This document shows, in pieces, positions 46,972-62,352 of a stretch of DNA of 64,000 nt. The notes under the pieces are model-generated. The model worked only from the letters and a program-made list of their open reading frames with translations, did no database searches and was not told the DNA's origin. The translations under genes and the position numbers were made by a program. Each line of letters begins with the position of its first letter. Within the stretch, counting starts at the first letter, position 1. Source of the stretch: Patescibacteria group bacterium (GTDB taxonomy: Bacteria; Patescibacteriota; Minisyncoccia; Minisyncoccales; UBA10102); NCBI GenBank assembly GCA_024239055.1, contig JANBVJ010000001.1, forward strand, positions 1,277 through 65,276, read 5' to 3'.

Positions 46972-47337
46972 ATGAAAAATTTAATTGTAGGACTTGTTAT
47001 TGTAGGAGTTATTGGAGGAATTGGCTTTTTAATATATCAGAATAATTCACTTCCCGGAGAGCACGATGAACTGGCTCAGTGTTTGAGTGATAATGGAGTA
47101 AAGATGTTTGGAGCATACTGGTGTCCTGCCTGTAAACAGCAGATAAGAGAATTTTCAAAGAGTTTTAAGTATGTGGATTATGTAGAATGTTCTTTGCCGA
47201 ACCGCGGAGGGCAGACTGCAAATTGTGAAGAACAAGAGATTACTTCTTATCCTACATGGGAGTTTTCAGATGGAGAAAGAGTATTAGGAGTACTTTCTTT
47301 AGGCAAGTTGGCTGAGAAAGCAGGGTGTAAGTTCTAA
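46972..47337 (+). CDS. Membrane-anchored thioredoxin-fold protein (VKOR-associated Trx-like type)
   Basis: 121-aa ORF with an N-terminal TM helix, the FGAYWCPACKQQ redox motif, and later YVEC...C...ITSYPTW, as in the Trx-like domains fused to bacterial VKOR. Confidence 0.7.
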   Translation: MKNLIVGLVIVGVIGGIGFLIYQNNSLPGEHDELAQCLSDNGVKMFGAYWCPACKQQIREFSKSFKYVDYVECSLPNRGGQTANCEEQEITSYPTWEFSDGERVLGVLSLGKLAEKAGCKF

Positions 47338-50753: not shown

Positions 50754-50782
50754 TTGACAAGAAACAAAGTCTCCATAATAAT
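50754..50782 (+). promoter_or_regulatory. Promoter of the riboswitch-controlled operon
   Basis: TTGACA (50754-50759), 17 nt, AATAAT (50777-50782). Confidence 0.55.
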
Positions 50783-50785
50783 GGT

Positions 50786-50930
50786 TACACAAGGTCTTTA
50801 AAACTATTGTTGTTCTGGGGAAGGAGATGTGAGTTCTCCACTACCCCGTAACGGTGATGATGCTTTTGGCATCTTAGTCCGGATACCAGGCAACAGATTA
50901 AAAACATTTAAGTAACAATCCTTCGAGGGA
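50786..50930 (+). promoter_or_regulatory. Cobalamin riboswitch (ends approximate)
   Basis: The conserved core is CTGGGGAAGGAGATGTGAGTTCTCCACTACCCCGTAACGGTGA (50815-50857), matching the GGGAA...GUGA..CC...CCCCGxAACxGU pattern. A B12-box-like AGTCCGGATACCAGGC lies at 50876-50891. The 5' TGTTG and 3' CAACA can pair as P1. It ends at the GGGAGGGG RBS of the next gene. Confidence 0.75.
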
Positions 50931-50936
50931 GGGGAT

Positions 50937-51422
50937 ATGTGGCTTTCTGCAATTCTGCGGTATTTTGGCAGAAGTGCGGCAACCCTCTCAATTCCCTTGG
51001 GAGTTTTTCTTTATATGATTATACGTATTTTTGGTTTAGTTTTACTAGTTCTTTTTGCAGGGGCTGTACTTTTGATTTCTGGGCAGATTGGTCAAACTGA
51101 TAGGACATTGGAGAATGTCCTAGGGACAGACATTGCAGTGATCCTTGAGACAGAAGAAACAAGATATGAGGTTACCATACCTCAAGGGAGCTCGGTGTTT
51201 GATGTGATGCAGACGGCACAAGACCAGGGTTTTACGTTTGCAGGGAGAGAGTTTTCAGGTCTTGGGTTTTTTGTAGAGGAGATAGAAGGTAAGCGTCAGA
51301 ATCCAAAAGAGCGAATGTATTGGATTTACTATGTGAATGGCAAGAAGGCTCAAGTCGGAGTTTCCTTATATATTATTGAAGATAATAACGTAATTACATT
51401 TAAGTATGAAGAAATGGAATAA
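50937..51422 (+). CDS. Membrane-anchored DUF4430 (transcobalamin-like C-terminal domain) protein
   Basis: 161-aa ORF with an N-terminal TM segment. The DUF4430 signature reads SVFDVMQTA...GFFVEEIEGKRQNPKERMYWIYYVNGKKAQVGVSLYIIEDNNVITFKY. Confidence 0.75.
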   Translation: MWLSAILRYFGRSAATLSIPLGVFLYMIIRIFGLVLLVLFAGAVLLISGQIGQTDRTLENVLGTDIAVILETEETRYEVTIPQGSSVFDVMQTAQDQGFTFAGREFSGLGFFVEEIEGKRQNPKERMYWIYYVNGKKAQVGVSLYIIEDNNVITFKYEEME

Positions 51423-53400
51423 TGGTGTGAAGATAGGGGGGTTAATTATTATTGGGCTTTTGTTCTGGGGGACGGCTCACGCAGATGTTACATTCTCAAT
51501 AAGGTATGAGGATAATTTGTTCATTGATGCGGTCACGGTTGCATTGCCAGTAGGGGATACTGTATTTTCAGCAGTAGACAGCAGTACTGGTGATCCTGTT
51601 GACGTTACTATATCAGCAGACACTGTCTTGGGAGTATTGAGTGCGATTGACGATACAGATGATGGATTTTCTATATCAATTCCTCTTATCTACTATTCAT
51701 CATTTGATTCTCTCTTTGTGGAGTGTATTGAGGTTGATGGGGTTAATGCCTGCAATAACTGGCTGTATGTAGTAAATGGAGTAGCTCCTGATGTAGGAAT
51801 GGATAAAACAACTCTTGCGGATGGAGATGTCATATTTGTCTATTTTGGCCCTTCTCGTAGAGTAGTTCTTTCCCGGTCAACCGTAATCGTAGGAGGGTCG
51901 TTTGAGGCAACAGCTCAAGATTACCAATATGAGGATAACACATGGGATTCTTTGGCGGGTGTTACTATTGGCGTGACGCAGCCAGATCCGGATAATCCAT
52001 GGTCTCCAATTGAGATTGTGCTTCAGGCTGTGGATGAAGAAGGAGTAGCTACCTTTAAGATTTCAAATGCAGGATCATATAACGTAGGAATTCGAGATGA
52101 GTGGGGAGGTTATTTCCCAACAGTTTCACTTACGATTCAGGCACAAGGTGGAGGGGTTGCGCCTTCGCATAATACATTGAATGTAGAAAAAGCAATTGAT
52201 TTTCTCTCTCTGTATCAACAAGAGAATGGCTCTATGAATGATTCTGCACTCTTGAGCGACTGGACAGCTCTGGCATTTGGGGCGTACGAGGGTGTAAATT
52301 TCAGCAGGGAGGAGTTAAAGAACTATCTTCTTTCTGATCCAAGTCCGGGAAGCAGGATCACTGATTACGAAAGGAGGGCTATGGCTTTACTAGCACTTGA
52401 TATTAATCCGTATTCTGGAACTGATACCAATTATATTGCAAAGATACTTGATTCCTTTGACGGAGAACAGTTTGGAAATCCTGAGTTTGTGAACGATGAT
52501 ATCTTTGCCCTCTTTGTTTTACTGCGGTCTGGGTATACAGATACAGATCCAGTTATTCAGAGTACTGTTTCCTCAATAGTTGCCTCACAATGGCAAGACG
52601 GTTCATGGGATAGCGTGGACATGACGGCAGCCGCAGTTCAGGCATTATCTCTTACTCCTTTAAATGAAGGTGTTTCATTTGCGTTGTATCAGGCCAAGAA
52701 TTACTTAAAGCAGGCGCAGGAGGAAACTGGAGGGTTTGGAAACGTCTATTCTACTTCTTGGGTGCTGCAAGCGCTGCACGTGCTTGAACAGGATGAGATC
52801 TGGTGGCAGAAGGGCAACCATACGCCTGGAGATTATCTGTATTCAATGCAGGCAGAAGACGGAGGGATGAATGAATTGGATACTCTTAGTAATCGCATCT
52901 GGGCTACAGCGTATGCTGTTCCCGCATCCATGGAAAAGACATGGGGAGATATACTCTTTAGCTTTGGAAAGCCCGTGAACACAGAAGAGGTATTGGTATT
53001 GTCTGAAGAAATAGAGGAGCCTTCTATGTCATTTGACGAAAAGCAGGTTATTCTTTTGGGGATTAAGTCAGAGTTAGACGTGATTTCCCAAAAGGTTGCT
53101 GTTTTGGAGCAAGAGGTTCAGCTTTTATTGGATGCTTATTCACCTAGATACTTAGCTGAGGTAGAAGAGGTAGTTATTGCTCAAGAACCCAAAGAAGAGG
53201 AAGAAATACTTTTGGCTGGAGTTACTATACTGCCAGAATCCGATATCTTTACAGCTTCTGCTGTTCAAAGTACTAGAGGCTTGTTATTATCTCAGATTTT
53301 CATTTGGGGTATTCGTATAGTACTGGTAGCGTTCTTTTTATACCTGGTCTTTTTGTTGGGCAGGGCGGTTGCTGCAAGGCGTAGTCTGCTGCAACAATAG
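51406..53400 (+). CDS. Secreted, C-terminally anchored protein: DUF4430 domain, Ig-like domain and prenyltransferase/terpene-cyclase-like alpha/alpha toroid
   Basis: 664-aa ORF with a signal peptide (LLFWGTAHADV) and a DUF4430 domain (...CNNWLYVVNGVAPDVGMDKTTLADGDVIFVYF). QW-like repeats (QQENGSM, SQWQDGSWD, QEETGGFG, MQAEDGGM) are typical of the alpha/alpha toroid. It also has a coiled-coil segment and a terminal TM helix. Confidence 0.7.
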   Translation: MKKWNNGVKIGGLIIIGLLFWGTAHADVTFSIRYEDNLFIDAVTVALPVGDTVFSAVDSSTGDPVDVTISADTVLGVLSAIDDTDDGFSISIPLIYYSSFDSLFVECIEVDGVNACNNWLYVVNGVAPDVGMDKTTLADGDVIFVYFGPSRRVVLSRSTVIVGGSFEATAQDYQYEDNTWDSLAGVTIGVTQPDPDNPWSPIEIVLQAVDEEGVATFKISNAGSYNVGIRDEWGGYFPTVSLTIQAQGGGVAPSHNTLNVEKAIDFLSLYQQENGSMNDSALLSDWTALAFGAYEGVNFSREELKNYLLSDPSPGSRITDYERRAMALLALDINPYSGTDTNYIAKILDSFDGEQFGNPEFVNDDIFALFVLLRSGYTDTDPVIQSTVSSIVASQWQDGSWDSVDMTAAAVQALSLTPLNEGVSFALYQAKNYLKQAQEETGGFGNVYSTSWVLQALHVLEQDEIWWQKGNHTPGDYLYSMQAEDGGMNELDTLSNRIWATAYAVPASMEKTWGDILFSFGKPVNTEEVLVLSEEIEEPSMSFDEKQVILLGIKSELDVISQKVAVLEQEVQLLLDAYSPRYLAEVEEVVIAQEPKEEEEILLAGVTILPESDIFTASAVQSTRGLLLSQIFIWGIRIVLVAFFLYLVFLLGRAVAARRSLLQQ

Positions 53401-53421
53401 TTTTCGTGGTATACTAAAGTT

Positions 53422-53874
53422 ATGATTTATCTTGGAGCTGCCCATGCAGGGTTCTCTTTAAAAGAAGAGATACAGAAGCATTTGGAGAGTTTAGGAATGG
53501 AAGTGGAGAATATGGGAGTCGCTTCCTTCAATAAGGATGATGATTATCCTGATATTGTTTTTTCAGTGGCGAAAAAGGTTGCAGAGTCGCCAGAGGAGAA
53601 TAAAGGGATTGTCCTAGGACGTTCAGGGCAGGGTGAAGCTATTGCGGCAAATAAAGTTAAAGGAGTAAGAGCTGTGGTGTACTACGGAGGGGATATGGAG
53701 ATTGTGGAGTTGAGCCGTGAGCACAATAATGCAAATGTGCTTTCAATTGGAGCTGGCTTTGTAAGTGTTGAGGAGGCAAAGGAGGCGGTTACCTTATGGC
53801 TTGAGACGGCATTTGGTGGTAATAGACACGAGAGGAGAGTGAAGAAGATTTCAGATTTTGAGCAGTCTCAATGA
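53422..53874 (+). CDS. rpiB: Ribose-5-phosphate isomerase B (RpiB/LacA/LacB family)
   Basis: 150-aa ORF with GAAHAGFSLKEEI..., G(R)SGQGEAIAANK and NNANVLSIGA blocks. Confidence 0.88.
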   Translation: MIYLGAAHAGFSLKEEIQKHLESLGMEVENMGVASFNKDDDYPDIVFSVAKKVAESPEENKGIVLGRSGQGEAIAANKVKGVRAVVYYGGDMEIVELSREHNNANVLSIGAGFVSVEEAKEAVTLWLETAFGGNRHERRVKKISDFEQSQ

Positions 53875-54494
53875 AAACAATTCTTCCTGGCATCTTAACT
53901 GCCGATATTGAAGAGGCAAAAAAACATATGGAGTCTGTAGGCAATCTTACAGATTATTTTCATGTTGATATTGCAGACGGCAAGTTCGTGAATAATACTA
54001 CTTTTGCGGTTGGAGAGCTGGCCGGTTTAGGGAAGTTTGAGATTCATTTATTAGCTGAGAATCCTGAAGAGTACTTTGAAGACTGCAAAGCCGCGCAAGC
54101 ACAGCGTGTTATCTTTCATATAGAGAGTACGGAGAATGTGAGGAGAGTTCTGGAAGCTGCCGAAGAATATCCTTTTGAGATTGGCATTGCCATAAATCCC
54201 GATACCGAAGTTTCATCCATTGTGCCTTTCAAGGAAGATATTGACAGCGTTATGGTTATGTTAGTATACCCCGGCTTTCAGGGTCAGGCGTTTATAGAAG
54301 AGGCGTTAACTAAAGTTCAGCAGATAAAGGAACTGGCTTCAGGCATGACAGTTGGCGTGGATGGAGGGGTAAATGAAGACACATTGCCAGCTGTTATTAA
54401 GTCAGGGGCTGACTATGCAATAGTAGGGAGCGGAGTTTTTGCACAAAAGAACCCTGGGGCCGCTTTAACGAAATTCAAGGCAATGATACACTAG
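53871..54494 (+). CDS. rpe: Ribulose-phosphate 3-epimerase
   Basis: 207-aa TIM-barrel ORF with HVDIADGKFV, HLL, PGFQGQAF and VDGGV motifs. Its start overlaps the rpiB stop. Confidence 0.82.
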   Translation: MKTILPGILTADIEEAKKHMESVGNLTDYFHVDIADGKFVNNTTFAVGELAGLGKFEIHLLAENPEEYFEDCKAAQAQRVIFHIESTENVRRVLEAAEEYPFEIGIAINPDTEVSSIVPFKEDIDSVMVMLVYPGFQGQAFIEEALTKVQQIKELASGMTVGVDGGVNEDTLPAVIKSGADYAIVGSGVFAQKNPGAALTKFKAMIH

Positions 54495-54500
54495 TTAAAT

Positions 54501-55316
54501 ATGACAATTCTTGAACTTGAAAAGAAAGCAAATACAATACGCCAGCAAGTTATTATAATGCTTCAGAAAGCAGGGTCTGGACATTCAGCGGGTCCCCTTG
54601 GTATGGCAGATGTATTTGCTGCTCTGTATTTTTCTATATTAAAACATAATCCAAAGAAACCTGAGTGGGCAGAGCGCGACAGACTGATTCTCTCGAACGG
54701 ACATATTTGTCCTGTGAGATATGCTGCAATGGCGGAAGCGGGTTACTTTCCTAAAAAAGAGCTTGCAACTCTGCGTCAGTTTGGCTCGCGACTGCAAGGA
54801 CACCCAGAGCGTTTAAAACTTCCTGGAATTGAAACTACATCAGGTCCCTTGGGTTCTGGACTTTCGCAAGCCGCCGGGATGGCTTTGGTTGGAAAGATGG
54901 ATAAGAAGTCTTGGCGTGTATATTGCGTAATGTCGGATGGCGAGCAGAATGCAGGGCAGACATGGGAGGCAGTTTTGTTTGCTGCCAAAAACAAGTTAGA
55001 TAACCTTGTTGCTATTATTGATAGAAACAATATTCAGATTGACGGCTATACTGAAGACGTGATGCCTCTAAATCCCTTAGGAGAGAAGTACGAGGCCTTT
55101 AACTGGAATGTACTTGAGATTGACGGACACAATATAGAGGAGATTATTGACGCGTGCAGTCATGCGAAAGCCGTACAGAAACAACCTACCCTTATTATTG
55201 CCAATACCATTGCAGGTAAGGGAGTGAGCTTTATGGAGAATAAGTATGAGTGGCATGGAAAGCCGCCTAATAAAGAGGAGGCAAAACAAGCTTTGAAAGA
55301 ATTAAAAGCACAATGA
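54501..55316 (+). CDS. tkt: Transketolase, N-terminal (TPP-binding) subunit
   Basis: 271-aa ORF with GSGHSAGPLGMAD, LSNGH, GPLGSGLSQAAGMA and SDGEQNAGQTWEA. This is the split-gene form. Confidence 0.92.
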   Translation: MTILELEKKANTIRQQVIIMLQKAGSGHSAGPLGMADVFAALYFSILKHNPKKPEWAERDRLILSNGHICPVRYAAMAEAGYFPKKELATLRQFGSRLQGHPERLKLPGIETTSGPLGSGLSQAAGMALVGKMDKKSWRVYCVMSDGEQNAGQTWEAVLFAAKNKLDNLVAIIDRNNIQIDGYTEDVMPLNPLGEKYEAFNWNVLEIDGHNIEEIIDACSHAKAVQKQPTLIIANTIAGKGVSFMENKYEWHGKPPNKEEAKQALKELKAQ

Positions 55317-56281
55317 GAAAAGAAGCGTACTTACATTCAAAGGTGTTGAGTAAACCAGAAATGGTACCCACAAGAAACGGGTATGGAGAAGGTTTGCTTG
55401 AGGCAGGGAAGAAAGATAAGGACGTTGTTGTTCTTTGTGCTGACTTATCTGAGTCAACTCGTTCTAACTATTTTCAAGAGAAGTTTCCAGAGAGGTTTGT
55501 CGAGGTTGGAGTGGCAGAACAGAATATGGCTTCTCTGGCTTCGGGTATGGCTTTGGCGGGAAAGACCGTGTTCATTTCTTCTTATGCTGTATTCTCACCG
55601 GGGAGGAATAACGAGCAGATACGAACAACTATTGCCATAAATGATGTGAATGTAAAGATTGTAGGAGCACATGCAGGGGTCTCAGTAGGTCCTGATGGAG
55701 CCACACATCAGGCTTTAGAAGATATAGCTTTAATGCGTGTGATGCCTAACATGAAGGTTTTGTATCCATGTGACGCAGAGGAGGCGAGAAAGACGACGGT
55801 AGCAGCCGCCTCAATAAAGGGACCTGTATATATTCGCCTGGCACGAGCAGAAACTCCTGTTATTACAACAAAAAAGACTCCGTTTCGCATTGGGCGGGCT
55901 GAGGTGTTTGCCGAAGGCAAAGATGTGACCATTATAGCTTCAGGCCCTTTGGTCTATGAGGCCTTGAAAGCGGCTAATGGCATGAGTAATTCTATTGAGG
56001 TTATTAATCTTCATACGATAAAGCCTTTGGATGAAAAGACTATATTAAGGTCAGTTAAGAAGACCGGGTGCGTGGTAACCATAGAGGAGCACCAGAAGGC
56101 GGGAGGTATGGGAAGTGCAGTGGCAGAGATGCTCGCGCAGAATTATCCTGTGGCTGTTGAGATGATTGGGGTTTCAGATAGATTCGGGGAGTCTGGAAAT
56201 CCAGAGGAGTTGTTGCAGGCATTTAAACTAACAGCTAAAGATATTACAAAGGCAGTGCAGAGAGTAATAAAAAGAAAATAG
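55313..56281 (+). CDS. tkt: Transketolase, C-terminal (pyrimidine-binding) subunit
   Basis: 322-aa ORF with FVEVGVAEQNM, GPDGATHQALEDIALMR and a C-terminal domain. It overlaps the N-subunit gene by 4 nt. Confidence 0.92.
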   Translation: MRKEAYLHSKVLSKPEMVPTRNGYGEGLLEAGKKDKDVVVLCADLSESTRSNYFQEKFPERFVEVGVAEQNMASLASGMALAGKTVFISSYAVFSPGRNNEQIRTTIAINDVNVKIVGAHAGVSVGPDGATHQALEDIALMRVMPNMKVLYPCDAEEARKTTVAAASIKGPVYIRLARAETPVITTKKTPFRIGRAEVFAEGKDVTIIASGPLVYEALKAANGMSNSIEVINLHTIKPLDEKTILRSVKKTGCVVTIEEHQKAGGMGSAVAEMLAQNYPVAVEMIGVSDRFGESGNPEELLQAFKLTAKDITKAVQRVIKRK

Positions 56282-56282
56282 T

Positions 56283-57260
56283 ATGAAGAAGTTTGATTTA
56301 ATCACAGTAGGGGACACAACCTTAGATGTATTCTTGGAGTTGGTGGAAGAGGTGAAGGTAATAAAAGATAAAACAACAGGACTGGATTATTTGGGCTTGG
56401 TGAACGCAGAAAAGATTCCTGTAAAGAAGCTGACCATAGTTCCCGCTGTAGGCAACTCAGCTAACGTTGCAATAGGGGCTGCACGTCTTGGATTAAAGTC
56501 AGCTATTTATACTATTTTAGGGGAAGATCAAACAGGGAGTGATTCGCTGGAGGTTTTAAAGAAGGAGGGCGTAGCTTTAGATTACATTACCATAGATAAA
56601 AAACAGGGGAGCAACTTCTCTGCAGTTTTAAATTACAAGGCAGAACGCACCATTCTTGTGTATCACGAAAAGAGAACATATAGTCTGCCAAAGCTCCCTC
56701 CAGCTTCTTTTATGTACTTTAGCTCTCTTGCAAAAGGACATGAGAAGCTGCACTCTCAGATTCCAAAGTATGTGAAAGCGAATAATGTAAAGCTTGGGTT
56801 TAATCCGGGTTCCTATCAACTCAGAGAGGGGTTAAAGAGAATGATTCCTATCTTAAAAGTTGCTGAGGTTTTATTTGTGAATAGGGCTGAAGCCCAGACG
56901 CTTGTAGGCAAAGAGCCTAATATTAAGAAATTATTAACAAAGCTGCATAAGCAGGGTCCAAAGATTGTAGTAATTACAGAGGGTCCAAAAGGTTCATATG
57001 CTTCTGATGGCGAACACGTATATTTTCTCGATATCTTTCCTGCTCCCTTGGTGGAAAGGACGGGAGCTGGAGATGCATTTTCTACTGGATTTATTTCAGC
57101 TTTAGCAAAAGGAGAAAGTGTTCCTGACGCTATGAGATGGGGGACTATTAGTTCAGCTTCCGTTATTCAGTACATTGGAGCTCGTGAGGGACTGCTTTCC
57201 AAAAAAGTAATGCAGGCAACAATTAAAAAGAGTCCTAAGTTTCAACCAAAGGAACTATGA
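56283..57260 (+). CDS. PfkB-family carbohydrate kinase (ribokinase-like)
   Basis: 325-aa ORF with GGSANVAIG-like VGNSANVAIGAA and the C-terminal TGAGDAFSTGFISAL motif. Confidence 0.85.
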   Translation: MKKFDLITVGDTTLDVFLELVEEVKVIKDKTTGLDYLGLVNAEKIPVKKLTIVPAVGNSANVAIGAARLGLKSAIYTILGEDQTGSDSLEVLKKEGVALDYITIDKKQGSNFSAVLNYKAERTILVYHEKRTYSLPKLPPASFMYFSSLAKGHEKLHSQIPKYVKANNVKLGFNPGSYQLREGLKRMIPILKVAEVLFVNRAEAQTLVGKEPNIKKLLTKLHKQGPKIVVITEGPKGSYASDGEHVYFLDIFPAPLVERTGAGDAFSTGFISALAKGESVPDAMRWGTISSASVIQYIGAREGLLSKKVMQATIKKSPKFQPKEL

Positions 57261-58213
57261 ATGTAATGGAGAAGGCCATACAGGACTTTCCCAAGCAGTT
57301 TGCGTGGGAGCCTGAGGTTATTAATTCAGATAAGTTGGGAAAATACTCAAGGTATGTTCTTGTTGGAATGGGAGGCTCTCGCCTATCAGGAGATTTATTA
57401 AATACCTCAAATCCAGAGATTGATTTATTAGTGCGCTCTGATTATGGACTTCCCTCATTTCTTGGTAAAGATACTCTTGTTATATGCAGTTCATATTCAG
57501 GTAATACAGAGGAAGTGTTATCAGTGTTTAAAGAGGCTCAAAAAAAGAGTATTCCAGTCGCAGTTCTTGCAAAGGGAGGTAAGCTTATTGAGTTAGCAAA
57601 AAAGGAAGACCTTCCATATATACAGTTTCCAGATACAGGTATTCAACCAAGGAGTGCTATAGGCTTTAGCTTCCGCGGATTAGTAAAGCTTATTGGAAGG
57701 GAAGATATATTAAAAGATACAGAAAGCTTAAAAGATGTTCTTTCTGTTGAGGATAATGGAAAAGATATAGCGGAAGTTTTACATAATAAGATTCCTGTTA
57801 TTTATTCCTCTTTTCGTAATCGTTCTCTGGGGTATATATTTAAGATTACATTAAATGAAACAGGAAAGATTCCTGCTTTTTATAATGTATTACCTGAAGC
57901 AAATCATAATGAGATGATCGGCTTTGATATTATAGATTCTACTAAGGAGTTATCTGAGAATCTTCACTTTGTGTTTTTAAAAGACGAGAAAGATAATAAA
58001 AGAATACAAAAGAGAATGGAGGTGCTGGAGCAGTTATATAAGGATAGGGGATTTGAAGTTGAGGTTGTTGCTTTTAAAGGGAAAAGTGTATTTGAGCGCA
58101 TGTTCTCCTCTATTCTACTTGCTGACTGGACTGCGTATCATATCTCAAAGCTCTACGGGACCCAACCCAATGAGGTTCCTATGGTGGAGGAGTTTAAAAA
58201 GCTCATTTTGTAA
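57257..58213 (+). CDS. Bifunctional phosphoglucose/phosphomannose isomerase (SIS domain)
   Basis: 318-aa ORF with the SIS motif VLVGMGGSRLSGD, SYSGNTEE and a C-terminal PGI/PMI-type region (NHNEMIGF). Confidence 0.8.
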   Translation: MNVMEKAIQDFPKQFAWEPEVINSDKLGKYSRYVLVGMGGSRLSGDLLNTSNPEIDLLVRSDYGLPSFLGKDTLVICSSYSGNTEEVLSVFKEAQKKSIPVAVLAKGGKLIELAKKEDLPYIQFPDTGIQPRSAIGFSFRGLVKLIGREDILKDTESLKDVLSVEDNGKDIAEVLHNKIPVIYSSFRNRSLGYIFKITLNETGKIPAFYNVLPEANHNEMIGFDIIDSTKELSENLHFVFLKDEKDNKRIQKRMEVLEQLYKDRGFEVEVVAFKGKSVFERMFSSILLADWTAYHISKLYGTQPNEVPMVEEFKKLIL

Positions 58214-58513: not shown

Positions 58514-58671
58514 TGAGCCACACGGCTTATTTTGTTTAGCCGAGATCCTTGACAACTGAATAGGGAGTCAAGACAAAAAAGGAAAGTGTAATGCTTCCCA
58601 AAATACCTTTGTCCAGCCCTTTGGCTGGTAACGTAACAACAGTGGAAAAGAACCTAGAGAAAGGAACGAAC

Positions 58672-61600
58672 ATGATCAGAAAGAAGTTTGTCCGATACGC
58701 GGTTTTGTTTGCCATGCTGCTCTTGCTCCTCAGCGGAGGGAGAACGGTTCTGGCTGCCAGTATGACCGTCGACAACACCATCGCTTGCGATGATGTGGTC
58801 GGTTTACCGTACTGCACGATTCAGGCCGCGGTTGATGACGCAGCGCCCGACGACACGATTAACGTCGCCGCAGGGACTTACGTTGAAAACGTCATCGTTG
58901 ACCTGGCACTCACCTTGCAAGGGACGCCGGGCGCCACTATTGCACCGGCTACGGGTGTCGGAGTGGAAATCCAGGCTTCAAGCGTCACGGTTGATGGTTT
59001 CACCATCAACACTTGGGGCTTGAATGCTCATGGTGTCTGGATCAGCGTGAGTGCTACAAGCCTTACTTTGACCGGAAACGATATCGTGATAGACGGCTAC
59101 TCTACCGCTATCTACGCGGATGCAGGAGTTTCTCAGACTGTTAAGAGTTCTGGGTGGACTATCTCCGGCAATACTCTGAGCGCCGCCGTCGGGGTCAACC
59201 TTGAGCTCTACGATGTTGACGCGGTGACGGTGGATGACAATGTCTTCGGTATTACTGCGGGCAGTAACGTCATCGTCAGTAGCGAACTTTTTGACCTGAC
59301 CGGAATTGCCTTCACCAACAACGATGTCCAGGGTAACAACGGTGGGAGTATGGTGGCATTCGTCACTGACTTCCAGGGAATAGCTCTAGGAGGAATCGTA
59401 CGTAATGATGGTATTCTTACCGCCATGGACGACGTCACCGTCGCGGGCAATACGTTCGCTGGCTGGGATAGCCGCGCCCTGCGCTTCGGGGATTGGGGGA
59501 ATCCTGTAACGAACGTTGTGGTGAACTCCAATATCTTCAATATGAGTGTAGACTCAGAAGTTATTGGGGGAGCTGACGCAGGAAGTGCGACAGGAGCAGG
59601 AAACACATTCAACGTCCAGGTGCCAGCAGAAATACAGGACGCGATAGATTCAGCGTTCAGTGGAGATACGGTCAACGTGGCTCCAGGAACGTACGACGTA
59701 GGCTTGCAGATCATCAGCAACGACATCCAGATCGTTGGTGATGCGGGTAATAAACCGGTAATTCGTCCGATCGCGGATATTACCGGAACTGGAGCTGCTG
59801 AGGACGCTTGGTTCTTAGTTGAGCCGAATGTCACATTCAGCCTCGCTAGTGTTGTGCTGGACGGTGATGGGTTTTGGGTCTGGCAGGCCATCCGTTCGCA
59901 TGGTAACACTTCCATTAGTAACGTCGACTTCCGCAACATACGCGGGAGTGTAGACGGTTCACCCTACAAGGGTATCGCCGTATCTAGTTACGGCGGCATC
60001 GTTGCAGGAGGTGTTGGCAGTGATAGCCACGGTGGTGAGGGCGACTTGTCCAGCAACCTGTTGGTACTCAACAGCAGCTTTGTGCAAATCGGTCGCATCG
60101 GCGTGATAGTGAAGGGTACTGGATCGGCCGCCGAGATTATCGGCAACACCTACACGGGCAAAGGTGACGGGGACTTCCTCGACTATGCCTTTGAACTTGG
60201 TGGTGGCGGCCTTGCGGCCATCAGTGGAAACACCATTACCGGCAACCGCGGTGTGGCCCTAGTTGACGGCTCGACCTCGGCTGGCGTTCTGGCGACGACG
60301 TACTGGTGTCTAACGCTCCCAGACTGCGTTACCACCGCCTTAATCGAAGACAACTCCATCACCGGCAACACGGATGGCGTTCACATAGGTTATGCTCCGG
60401 GTCCCGCCGACACAAGTGTCGTCACGATCCACCGCAACAACCTTAGTGGCAACACCGCATTCGCCGTCATCAGCACGGACGCGGTTGTGAACTCCACCGA
60501 TAACTGGTGGGGTTCTGCGAACGGTCCGAGCCATGAGTCCAACACGTTCAACGTGGAGGCACAGGGCGACGCGGTCAGCGACAATGTTGACTTCGTGCCT
60601 TGGCTGGACGCTTTGGACGGCGCTCCATTCGCTCCCGTAGTAAACGACGAGAGCGAGTCCTACACCTCCATCTCGGCCGCCATCAACGGCACCGAGGCCG
60701 GAGGTACGGTTACTGCGTCGTCAGGAACGTACGTCGAATCCTTGGTCATCGCCAAGCCGCTCACGTTGCGTGGGCCGAATGCGAGCATCAGCCCGCATTC
60801 GGAATCGCGGGTCGCGGAAGCGATCATCACTGGAGTGTCACCGTTAGTCCAGTTGCCGTCTGAAGCGAATGTGAATCCGCTCATAATCGAAGGGTTCACA
60901 TTCCAAGACACGACTGGCTCCGGGGCCGTAATCTACGCGAACGGCGAAAGCGATGGTTGGGGCAACGTCACAATTCGTTCCAACCGTTTCATGGACAACT
61001 ACGGACCGGCCATCGGTGTCTGGACCTCGACCTTGAACGAGCCAATCAACCCAGCCAACTGGACAATCAGCGACAACCTCATCAATGGAGTGACGGGACC
61101 GAGCAGATCAGGTATATACCTGGCTCTGGCTAACCCTGAGGATGTAGCTACCGAGTTTAGTGGTTGGGAGATCAGCAACAACAGGATCAGGAACACCCAA
61201 TACGGCGGAATCATGGTCCATGGCGCGGTTGACATGCTCATCTCCGGAAACATCGTCGAGGACGTCCAGAAAACGGGCATCCAGTCATCGGGGATACAGG
61301 GGAACGTGACGATTACGGATAACCTGATTCTCAGAGCGATGTTGGCTAGTGAATCGGGTCCTATTAGGGCTGGTATCCGCCTCTACGGTACGGACCCCAC
61401 AGACGAGTATGGCGAGAGTCAGCTCATCGGTCCGGTATGGGTGACCGACAACGTCGTCGAGCAATCCTACATTGGGTTCGCAACCAAGAGCGGCCATGAC
61501 TACCCCAGCGAGTTGGTCCACGTCAACGGCAACAGCTTCGTGGGGAACATCGAAGCCGGCCTTCTCCACAACGGTAACGGTCTCTTCGACGCAAAAGGCA

Positions 61601-62352
61601 ACTGGTGGGGAACCGCCACGGGTCCGAGCGGTGAAGGGCCGGGACAAGGAGATGCCGTGGGACCAGGAATCAGCTTTGAACCCTGGCTCACCCGGCTTGG
61701 CTTCCAAGTGACTCTTAGTAATGAGAGCTACCTGGGATTCGGCTACCAGCTTAACGCCGGATGGGAAACCTTTTCCATCCCGGTGTGGGCGGAGAACGAA
61801 ACGTTCTTCGGAGCTTGGGAAGTCCTTTGGACGGACATGGAAGGGAACCCGGGTCCCGAAGAAGGCGGAATACCGGTACCCCGACTGAGCGGCCTTGTTA
61901 ACGAGGCCATAGTGGAAATCGCGTACCGCTTCAACGCGGCAACGCAGGAGTGGGAGCAAATCCTTGACGTAGACACCCTCTCACCCTTTGAAGCTGTGTA
62001 CGTGAAGTCACGAGTGGCGCACGCAGCGTCCCTCAACGTAACGCCGGACCTCACAAGTCCTCCCACCTACCAGTTGCAAGCCGGCTGGAACTTGGTGGGG
62101 ATGACGCTTGATCCTCTTGGGTCTGGCACCATGGCGGTTCCCGAAGCCTTCATCAGCGCGTACGACGCGCCCGGAGGTATAGGGTACCTGCAGGTCTTCA
62201 GTCCGGCAGTGAACCCGACCACGTTTGCGTGGGCACGGGACAGTGCACAAGACCCAATCCCTCAAGTGGAAATCGGGAGGGGCTACTGGGTCTTCATGGA
62301 AAACCCTGACACGATAGCAGGGTTCAGCTCAACTCCATTAACTCTGGAGTAG
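58672..62352 (+). CDS. Large secreted right-handed parallel beta-helix (NosD/CASH-type) repeat protein with three beta-helix modules
   Basis: The start MIRKKFVRYAVLFAMLLLLLSGGRTVLAA is a signal peptide; the track ORF begins 27 codons earlier. Three modules each open with I(Q/S)xAIxx...GDT(I/V)xVAxGTY. NWWG(S/T)AxGPS motifs recur. G+C is high and third-position G/C is frequent. Confidence 0.8.
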   Translation: MIRKKFVRYAVLFAMLLLLLSGGRTVLAASMTVDNTIACDDVVGLPYCTIQAAVDDAAPDDTINVAAGTYVENVIVDLALTLQGTPGATIAPATGVGVEIQASSVTVDGFTINTWGLNAHGVWISVSATSLTLTGNDIVIDGYSTAIYADAGVSQTVKSSGWTISGNTLSAAVGVNLELYDVDAVTVDDNVFGITAGSNVIVSSELFDLTGIAFTNNDVQGNNGGSMVAFVTDFQGIALGGIVRNDGILTAMDDVTVAGNTFAGWDSRALRFGDWGNPVTNVVVNSNIFNMSVDSEVIGGADAGSATGAGNTFNVQVPAEIQDAIDSAFSGDTVNVAPGTYDVGLQIISNDIQIVGDAGNKPVIRPIADITGTGAAEDAWFLVEPNVTFSLASVVLDGDGFWVWQAIRSHGNTSISNVDFRNIRGSVDGSPYKGIAVSSYGGIVAGGVGSDSHGGEGDLSSNLLVLNSSFVQIGRIGVIVKGTGSAAEIIGNTYTGKGDGDFLDYAFELGGGGLAAISGNTITGNRGVALVDGSTSAGVLATTYWCLTLPDCVTTALIEDNSITGNTDGVHIGYAPGPADTSVVTIHRNNLSGNTAFAVISTDAVVNSTDNWWGSANGPSHESNTFNVEAQGDAVSDNVDFVPWLDALDGAPFAPVVNDESESYTSISAAINGTEAGGTVTASSGTYVESLVIAKPLTLRGPNASISPHSESRVAEAIITGVSPLVQLPSEANVNPLIIEGFTFQDTTGSGAVIYANGESDGWGNVTIRSNRFMDNYGPAIGVWTSTLNEPINPANWTISDNLINGVTGPSRSGIYLALANPEDVATEFSGWEISNNRIRNTQYGGIMVHGAVDMLISGNIVEDVQKTGIQSSGIQGNVTITDNLILRAMLASESGPIRAGIRLYGTDPTDEYGESQLIGPVWVTDNVVEQSYIGFATKSGHDYPSELVHVNGNSFVGNIEAGLLHNGNGLFDAKGNWWGTATGPSGEGPGQGDAVGPGISFEPWLTRLGFQVTLSNESYLGFGYQLNAGWETFSIPVWAENETFFGAWEVLWTDMEGNPGPEEGGIPVPRLSGLVNEAIVEIAYRFNAATQEWEQILDVDTLSPFEAVYVKSRVAHAASLNVTPDLTSPPTYQLQAGWNLVGMTLDPLGSGTMAVPEAFISAYDAPGGIGYLQVFSPAVNPTTFAWARDSAQDPIPQVEIGRGYWVFMENPDTIAGFSSTPLTLE

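Follow-up and report, generated by a model that had tools for sequence, protein, structure and literature searches.

What does a bacterium with very few genes of its own do with a cobalamin riboswitch and two exported, transcobalamin-like proteins? This question is raised by a locus of contig JANBVJ010000001.1 (assembly GCA_024239055.1) from a Patescibacteria (candidate phyla radiation, CPR) bacterium, of which we analysed one stretch of 64,000 nucleotides, hereafter the window. On its + strand, a cobalamin riboswitch is followed by a gene for a protein of 161 amino acids (aa; gene 1, the small protein) and, overlapping this by 17 nt, by a gene for a 664-aa protein (gene 2, the large protein); both proteins contain the DUF4430 domain, which is like the beta domain of animal transcobalamin. 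Patescibacteria genomes are tiny and, to our knowledge, encode no cofactor biosynthesis, and many of these bacteria appear to need an adenosylcobalamin-dependent ribonucleotide reductase (RNR) for DNA precursors. The route by which they acquire vitamin B12 is thus of immediate relevance to how far they depend on other cells. We consider it probable that the locus is a B12-repressed, corrinoid-scavenging module of the CPR cell, from which captured corrinoid would be handed over to CbrT-like transport, PduO-type adenosylation and a class II RNR.

The riboswitch and the two envelope proteins

The leader of gene 1 matches the Rfam cobalamin riboswitch over the full model (1-189; clan CL00101; E 8e-8 for the whole window), with a score above the Rfam gathering threshold and in a short form whose variable hairpin is small. 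Across 23 CPR sequences the aptamer core is conserved, and compensatory double changes are seen in 18 of 25 predicted pairs. The score, the compensatory changes and the position before B12-related genes, with an expression platform in between, together identify this leader as a cobalamin riboswitch, as the first-pass annotation (a reading of the letters, which placed it at about 50786-50930) had claimed.

The 3′ end of the aptamer is 28 nt from the ATG of gene 1, and the pairing of UCCUUC with the Shine-Dalgarno sequence (Table 1) is present in the minimum-free-energy fold. No terminator was found between aptamer and ATG, and the mode of control is likely to be translational repression, via sequestration of the Shine-Dalgarno sequence. 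Two terminator-like sites further on (50947-50960 and 50985-51003) were rejected as riboswitch terminators; they lie within the coding sequence and such sites are no more frequent there than in shuffled sequence. The best promoter-like site of the region is found 9 nt upstream of the aptamer. A sub-threshold match to the eukaryotic snoRNA SNORD96 (window 50883-50963; 26.2 bits against a gathering score of 43), overlapping the 3′ end of the riboswitch and the start of gene 1, was dismissed as chance.

The small protein consists of an N-terminal hydrophobic helix, seen in the hydropathy profile, and a DUF4430 domain (PF14478; 65.1 bits, cut-off 23.8), and NCBIfam returned no name for it. Its length differs between databases, with 161 aa in ENA and 135 aa, from a later ATG (51015), in NCBI. 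The longer form starts 2 nt past a strong GGGAGGGG Shine-Dalgarno sequence and is the form that the riboswitch platform would control; the 160/161-aa form is also the one used in three close homologues.

The DUF4430 domain of the small-protein model has a predicted local distance difference test score (pLDDT) above 90, and its top 17 matches in the PDB are all beta domains of transcobalamin, haptocorrin or intrinsic factor. Against the animal beta domains the root-mean-square deviation (rmsd) is 1.4-2.8 Å with 22-25% identity, and against 5no0, the isolated human beta domain, the template-modelling (TM) score is 0.83 with an rmsd of 1.6 Å. Only after these 17 come the bacterial DUF4430 structure 3u7z and then ubiquitin-like folds, with E-values about 1000-fold weaker. 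As modelled, the fold is specifically of the transcobalamin/haptocorrin/intrinsic-factor beta type. The matches include 5np4, which by its entry title is the isolated human beta domain with cyanocobalamin bound; a beta domain on its own can therefore hold the vitamin.

The DUF4430 domain of the large protein is paralogous to that of the small one (E 7e-6), and two of its cysteines, Cys107 and Cys116, are both present in 107 of 107 sequences. An AlphaFold model of residues 27-520 only, made with an alignment of 107 homologues, has a mean pLDDT of 95.4 and contains, besides a beta-grasp domain and a beta-sandwich, an alpha/alpha toroid of 12 helices. The protein begins with a signal peptide and ends, beyond an acidic stalk, in a membrane helix; an N-terminal hydrophobic segment occurs in 114 of 120 large-protein homologues and a similar C-terminal membrane segment in 67 of the 120. 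These export and anchoring signals support the prediction that both proteins are tethered in the cell envelope. Thus the first description of the pair, as a membrane-anchored DUF4430 protein overlapped by a secreted, C-terminally anchored one that combines DUF4430, Ig-like and QW-repeat toroid domains, has held.

Many members of the large-protein family are 800-1100 aa in length, carry long extensions at the N-terminus and are matched by the family profile over two distinct stretches (P0011, P0134-P0140, P0249 and others), so that the capture head appears to be elaborated in some lineages.

Table 1. Features of the riboswitch-controlled locus, in window coordinates
Feature	Position	Strand	Details and basis
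Promoter-like -35/-10 pair	50754..50782	+	TTGACA, 17-nt spacer, AATAAT; 11/12 matches; consensus match only
Cobalamin riboswitch aptamer	50791..50908	+	RF00174, 44.1 bits against gathering score 31.5
Expression platform (predicted)	50919..50936	+	UCCUUC (50919-50924) pairs with Shine-Dalgarno GAGGGG (50929-50934); ATG at 50937
Small protein (gene 1), 161 aa	50937..51422	+	Membrane anchor aa 28-46, short linker, DUF4430 aa ~65-159
Large protein (gene 2), 664 aa	51406..53400	+	Signal peptide, DUF4430, Ig-like, toroid, acidic stalk, C-terminal helix
Signal peptide, aa 1-26	51406..51483	+	Cleavage ...GTAHA/D; from sequence reading
DUF4430 (beta-grasp) domain, aa 27-147	51484..51846	+	PF14478, 27.1 bits (cut-off 23.8); secondary structure of the model
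Ig-like beta-sandwich, aa ~151-245	51856..52140	+	All-beta, pLDDT above 90; homologues match PF16403, PF17963
Alpha/alpha toroid with QW-like repeats, aa ~260-516	52183..52953	+	Fold model, profile match, conserved residues
Acidic, helix-prone stalk, aa 520-625	52963..53280	+	~105 residues, 19 Glu; composition; outside the modelled region
C-terminal transmembrane helix, aa ~633-651, then basic tail	53302..53358	+	Hydropathy 2.5 over 19 residues

Does the large protein, then, carry both halves of a transcobalamin-type clamp, as was claimed at first reading? The beta half stands, and in both proteins; the toroid is not specifically transcobalamin-like. A Foldseek search of the PDB with the toroid (sometimes together with the Ig-like domain) returned the thioester domains of alpha-2-macroglobulin and complement proteins, squalene-hopene cyclase, drimenyl diphosphate synthase and transcobalamin, the last with TM scores of 0.42-0.50 (normalised to transcobalamin) over some 298 aligned columns. 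Hence the structural comparison with transcobalamin and intrinsic factor, which had been suggested as a check, bore out the small-protein domain and left transcobalamin as one among many matches of the toroid, which is a generic QW-repeat barrel. The family profile did not detect transcobalamin at E <= 1. The single-sequence PDB search with the window protein ranked transcobalamin at the top, non-significantly (E 0.3-1.3), and PF01122 (Cobalamin_bind) reached 26.4 bits (cut-off 25) over only 40 aa of the large protein; both of these arise from a short motif common to the window toroid (GGFGNVYSTSWVLQAL) and transcobalamin (GxFGNVYSTPLALQxL; GGFGNVYST..LQAL).

A barrel of this kind could also be an enzyme, terpene cyclase- or prenyltransferase-like or corrinoid-modifying, with the DUF4430 domains only delivering or holding its substrate. 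Via QW-type repeats, the family profile matches squalene-hopene cyclase (E 4e-12) as well as drimenyl and other class II cyclases, and NCBI gives relatives such names as ‘terpene cyclase/mutase family’ and ‘prenyltransferase/squalene oxidase repeat-containing protein’. The sVDxTAA of the toroid even aligns with the DVDDTA of the cyclases; yet in the family this motif reads [S/G]-V-D-[M/L]-T-A, in which the central Asp (Asp405) alone is conserved (107/107), an acid at the first position of DxDD being found in just 5 of 107 members and at the fourth in none of the 107. Nor do the NCBIfam cyclase models TIGR01787 and TIGR01507 come near their cut-offs (23.2 and 14.4 bits against 322.7 and 431.1), and SQHop_cyclase_C (17.5 bits) is below its own. 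An intact class II terpene cyclase was rejected because only the central Asp is kept and these scores are so low, in agreement with the first-pass annotation, whose reading depended on the toroid not being catalytically intact. Further, the large protein has one toroid where the cyclase body has two domains, and export would place this toroid on a stalk, remote from the isoprenoid diphosphate substrates. We regard an enzymatic toroid as highly improbable.

Invariant residues of the toroid (D285-W286, R323, N363-D364-D365, D405, W452 and R497/W499) are found at helix starts, and each of the helices concerned begins after a QW-type turn. They resemble a conserved ligand site, which may lie at one mouth of the barrel.

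Conservation and gene partners in CPR genomes

Homologous loci were collected from one genome per species and 360 were confirmed; the counts below are for the best 80 of these 360, which were fetched with their flanks. The homologues of the large protein number in the hundreds and are all from CPR bacteria (Nomura-, Wildermuth-, Portnoy-, Lipton-, Magasanik- and Falkowbacteria, and Paceibacterota); when 1.84 billion cluster representatives were searched with a profile, at least 1241 clusters (50% identity) matched at E <= 1e-30. A riboswitch lies upstream of the module in 63 of the 80 loci, 62 being recognised by a profile hidden Markov model (HMM) made from 23 aligned leaders and one more by Rfam. 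The HMM matches occur exactly once per locus, on the same strand and just upstream, and Rfam confirmed seven of nine sampled ones as RF01482, RF01689 or RF00174, all of the cobalamin clan. Since four loci are cut off upstream, the proportion among assessable loci is 63 of 76. The small DUF4430 gene was found in 64 of the 80, directly before the large gene except in L024, where it is downstream; five further loci have a diverged copy in the gap, bringing the total to at least 69.

The recurrence of the order riboswitch-small gene-large gene in most of the 80 loci, together with the compensatory changes in the leader, places this arrangement beyond chance: a riboswitch-controlled, transcobalamin-like surface pair is a conserved trait of CPR bacteria. 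The platform has relatives too. A hairpin downstream of the aptamer (UCC-CGAGCA-GGA), homologous to the platform of the window and spanned by the RF01482 match, is kept in most loci. Most relatives have a second small hairpin and a start codon 50-80 nt further on; the window and L007 have a compact platform, in which the Shine-Dalgarno sequence is formed by the 3′ half of the hairpin. Four of the loci (L036, L048, L062 and L074) come from third-party-annotation records of metagenome-assembled genomes titled ‘uncultured Gammaproteobacteria’ or ‘Candidatus Saccharibacteria’; in gene content and in protein family they look like Paceibacteria-type CPR, and the taxonomy of these records is probably wrong.

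What travels with the module was asked by clustering all neighbouring open reading frames (ORFs) of the 80 loci and counting partners on the same strand. A class II RNR with an ATP cone and a ‘B12-dependent RNR insertion domain’ is present in 27 of the 80 loci; its best NCBIfam match is the adenosylcobalamin-dependent RTPR (285.6 bits, under the equivalog cut-off of 340). In 15 loci there is a PduO-type cobalamin adenosyltransferase. Membrane proteins of about 180 aa with six helices form two families, for neither of which NCBIfam has a name; these occur in 25 and 11 loci and never co-occur, thus covering 36 of the 80; the first sits upstream of the RNR and the second (Pfam DUF6580) directly downstream of the large gene. 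An hhalign comparison shows the two families to be homologous (probability 91%, E 1e-6). Single-sequence searches of the PDB with both types gave no match, and the profile of each family (25 and 11 sequences) matches one PDB sequence only, chain A of 6FNP, the ECF-CbrT vitamin-B12 transporter (an energy-coupling factor, ECF, system) of Lactobacillus delbrueckii (Santos et al. 2018, eLife). This 182-aa chain is labelled ‘Membrane protein’ and, judged by its size, is the S component CbrT.

Seven loci (L018, L019, L029, L056, L057, L068 and L077) have no detectable riboswitch and carry these genes in a single same-strand run, apparently an operon, in the order S-component-like gene, class II RNR, (PduO), small DUF4430 gene and large gene, often followed by an ArsR gene. 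L019 has an unexplained gap of 570 nt between the RNR and the small gene.

The RNR, PduO and CbrT-like partners provide strong guilt by association with B12 use and uptake, the more so as nrdJ, cbrT and pduO are partners in L. delbrueckii as well. The predicted B12-scavenging role, proposed at first from the window alone, fits this context and is well supported by it. That no transporter gene is adjacent, also claimed then, is true of the window and its 3′ flank and proved to be a local feature, given the CbrT-like gene clustered with the module in the 36 relatives.

Other neighbours recur. In 12 loci (L021:11743-12072, L019:11729-12031 and 10 others), the large gene is directly followed, on its own strand, by the gene of an ArsR/SmtB-family regulator of about 109 aa; fusions of SLBB and ArsR domains have been discussed as possible B12-responsive regulators (Burroughs 2007, PMC1796856), the CPR ArsR being a separate protein. 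In 15 loci (L015:6377-7537, L059:6271-7425 and 13 others), which are without CbrT-like genes and mostly of Nomurabacteria type, the same strand encodes an MFS_1 transporter of about 384 aa, 2-3 kb upstream. Thioredoxin-like genes are near the module in 23 of the 80 loci and DsbB-like genes in 21 (e.g. L057:12065-12457, L043:13671-14222). Together with the cysteine pair C107/C116 these may reflect a link to extracytoplasmic disulfide formation, or mere synteny.

Known systems and the proposed uptake route

Proteins of this kind were predicted in 2007. Burroughs, Balaji, Iyer and Aravind (Biol Direct 2:4, PMC1796856) defined a transcobalamin-like clade of the SLBB beta-grasp superfamily, of secreted or surface-anchored proteins in which the toroid may be ‘either N-terminal ... 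or C-terminal’ to the SLBB domain, which have extra Ig-fold fusions and which are often encoded beside a second, paralogous SLBB protein. They predicted B12 scavenging for these proteins, which they found in hosts without B12 synthesis, and proposed that animal transcobalamin was acquired from such bacteria. The CPR module is like this class in its DUF4430 (PF14478) domains, export, toroid in the same chain, Ig-fold and adjacent paralogue. It differs in its host (those of the 2007 class being mainly low-GC Gram-positives, planctomycetes and some archaea), in its cobalamin riboswitch, in having membrane helices and not Gram-positive wall anchors, and in the absence of an adjacent transporter here, where the genes of the 2007 class are usually in operons with CbiO/CbiQ-like transporter genes.

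The view that a system divided between a small and a large DUF4430 protein had not been described must therefore be given up, as both domain orders, Ig fusions and paired paralogues were in the 2007 survey and Lsa1839/Lsa1840 of Lactobacillus sakei provide a precedent for the split. The module belongs to this already predicted kind and is not a new type of system. New here are the CPR host clade (no description of CPR hosts of such proteins was found in the searchable literature), the control by a cobalamin riboswitch, and the membrane-helix anchoring with a long stalk. Also new are, within CPR, the link with CbrT-like S components and with RNR-II and PduO, and the physical separation from any transporter gene that is seen in this genome.

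Animal transcobalamin, intrinsic factor and haptocorrin (PF01122 plus DUF4430) share with the large protein an alpha6/alpha6 toroid, a beta-grasp domain and the GxFGNVYST..LQ.L motif. The large protein has the order beta-Ig-alpha, reversed and with the Ig-like domain inserted, and is membrane-tethered and not soluble. The reversed order and the non-decisive match of the alpha domain put the module outside the eukaryotic transcobalamin family proper.

The L. sakei pair raises the question of the ligand. Lsa1839 and Lsa1840, from the ECF-like operon lsa1836-1840, are likewise extracellular transcobalamin beta-like and alpha-like parts side by side, with tetrapyrrole scavenging proposed for an ECF-type importer, and docking and mutants link the operon to heme uptake (preprint 10.1101/864751). 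In L. sakei the two parts are made as separate proteins and the operon includes the ECF S, A and T genes; in the window, the large protein has both parts, a further beta-only protein is encoded, a cobalamin riboswitch precedes the genes and no ECF genes are adjacent. Might the CPR pair, too, bind heme or another tetrapyrrole and not a corrinoid? A reviewer of the 2007 paper cautioned that the ligands of the clade may be diverse, which would allow for this. However, the cobalamin riboswitch here and in 63 of 80 relatives, and the recurrence of adenosylcobalamin-dependent RNR, PduO and CbrT-like genes as partners, speak for a corrinoid, and no recurrent heme-related neighbour was found among the ORFs of the 80 loci. 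We therefore hold a heme ligand to be very unlikely.

Two further systems illustrate transport and capture. CbrT of L. delbrueckii is encoded within an nrdJ-cbrS-cbrT-pduO cluster (Santos et al. 2018), and CPR relatives similarly cluster the module with a CbrT-like protein, class II RNR and PduO; in contrast, the window is without a CbrT-like gene, and EcfA, EcfA′ and EcfT do not recur among the neighbours in the 80 loci. The BtuG, BtuH and BtuJ1 proteins of Bacteroides capture B12 at the surface before the transporter, in a multi-protein extracellular relay, and are enriched in B12 non-producers. These are outer-membrane lipoproteins feeding the TonB-dependent BtuB, with folds unrelated to those of the CPR pair (that of BtuG is a beta-propeller, and for the BtuH domain there are ‘no known structural homologs’), so the likeness is functional only. 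BtuH was considered as a DUF4430 protein and rejected; the BtuH paper does not mention DUF4430.

The Bacteroides proteins also suggest another use for the CPR pair, namely that corrinoids are sequestered or stored on the cell surface, to serve as a reserve or as a weapon in competition, with no delivery to a dedicated transporter. A surface reservoir of B12 is a role put forward for BtuJ1. Storage would explain why the binder genes are uncoupled from transporter genes here, where none was found in window or flank, and 44 of the 80 loci have no CbrT-like gene in the sequence covered. Repression by cobalamin is, however, the usual logic of uptake genes, and the remaining 36 loci do have the CbrT-like gene clustered with the module, seven of them joined to RNR and the binders in what appears to be a single operon. 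Storage and uptake are compatible with each other; storage with no onward delivery we consider unlikely.

We propose that the module works as a B12-repressed uptake route, as follows. When intracellular cobalamin is plentiful, it would bind the leader RNA, the Shine-Dalgarno sequence would be held in the short hairpin and neither protein would be made. When cobalamin is scarce, both proteins would be synthesised and exported. The large protein, held off the membrane on its acidic stalk, could capture corrinoids jointly with its transcobalamin-type beta domain and its toroid, while the small protein would keep a second beta domain near the membrane. Captured corrinoid would pass to a transporter in the membrane, for which a CbrT-like S component encoded elsewhere in the genome is the likeliest candidate, and a PduO-type enzyme would adenosylate it in the cell for the adenosylcobalamin-dependent class II RNR.

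Several observations weigh against this proposal. Corrinoid binding by bacterial DUF4430/toroid proteins, including those of the 2007 class, is so far a prediction, and heme is the ligand proposed for a homologous pair, that of L. sakei. The toroid is nearer in profile to terpene cyclases than to transcobalamin, and although the domains of the large-protein model are reliable their mutual arrangement is uncertain (predicted TM score, pTM, 0.62), which bears on any cooperation of beta domain and toroid. The CbrT matches of the two membrane families are weak (E 0.004 and 0.032). Some 13 of 76 assessable loci have no detectable riboswitch. Lastly, the 64-kb window and the 10 kb past its 3′ end encode no BtuCDF, ECF or TonB-type transporter, no RNR, PduO or CbrT-like S component and no other B12-dependent enzyme, so that the B12 dependence of this organism would be deduced from its relatives.

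A bolder version of the same route is that the pair is a self-sufficient, stalk-mounted corrinoid ‘fishing rod’, which takes B12 from the host surface or from the binding proteins of others during episymbiosis and relays it, via the small protein, to a solitary CbrT-like S component working without an ECF module. We think this rather unlikely, but if true it would give the cell a full pathway of B12 uptake distinct from BtuBFCD, ECF-CbrT and BtuM. A fused beta-toroid lineage so widespread in CPR could also bear on the origin of animal transcobalamin. The uptake route that we propose is concrete and testable, and the small soluble domains are tractable for a first biochemical test of the 2007 prediction.

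Surroundings of the locus in the window

The module lies in what is otherwise a housekeeping stretch of a small-genome bacterium, with rpoB/C, ftsK, recA, ssb, groEL, uvrA/C and dnaG, and with genes for a sigma-70 factor, RNase J, a split transketolase, rpiB, rpe and a bacterial-type phosphoglucose isomerase (PGI). The start of rpiB is only 22 nt past the stop codon of gene 2 (53400-53422), with no terminator-like site between, and rpiB is followed by rpe, the split transketolase, a pfkB kinase and PGI (53422-58213). Transcription from the riboswitch promoter may extend into these pentose-phosphate genes.

On the other side, 3.6 kb upstream of the module, a thioredoxin-like exported protein with a CPAC motif is encoded (46972-47337, +). 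Towards the 3′ end of the window, a 1253-aa protein has a right-handed beta-helix (Beta_helix/NosD) region (58591-62352, +), and past the window, 3′ of this gene, are genes for DUF5671, DUF5667 and Kazal-domain proteins, the whole resembling a cluster of large surface proteins.

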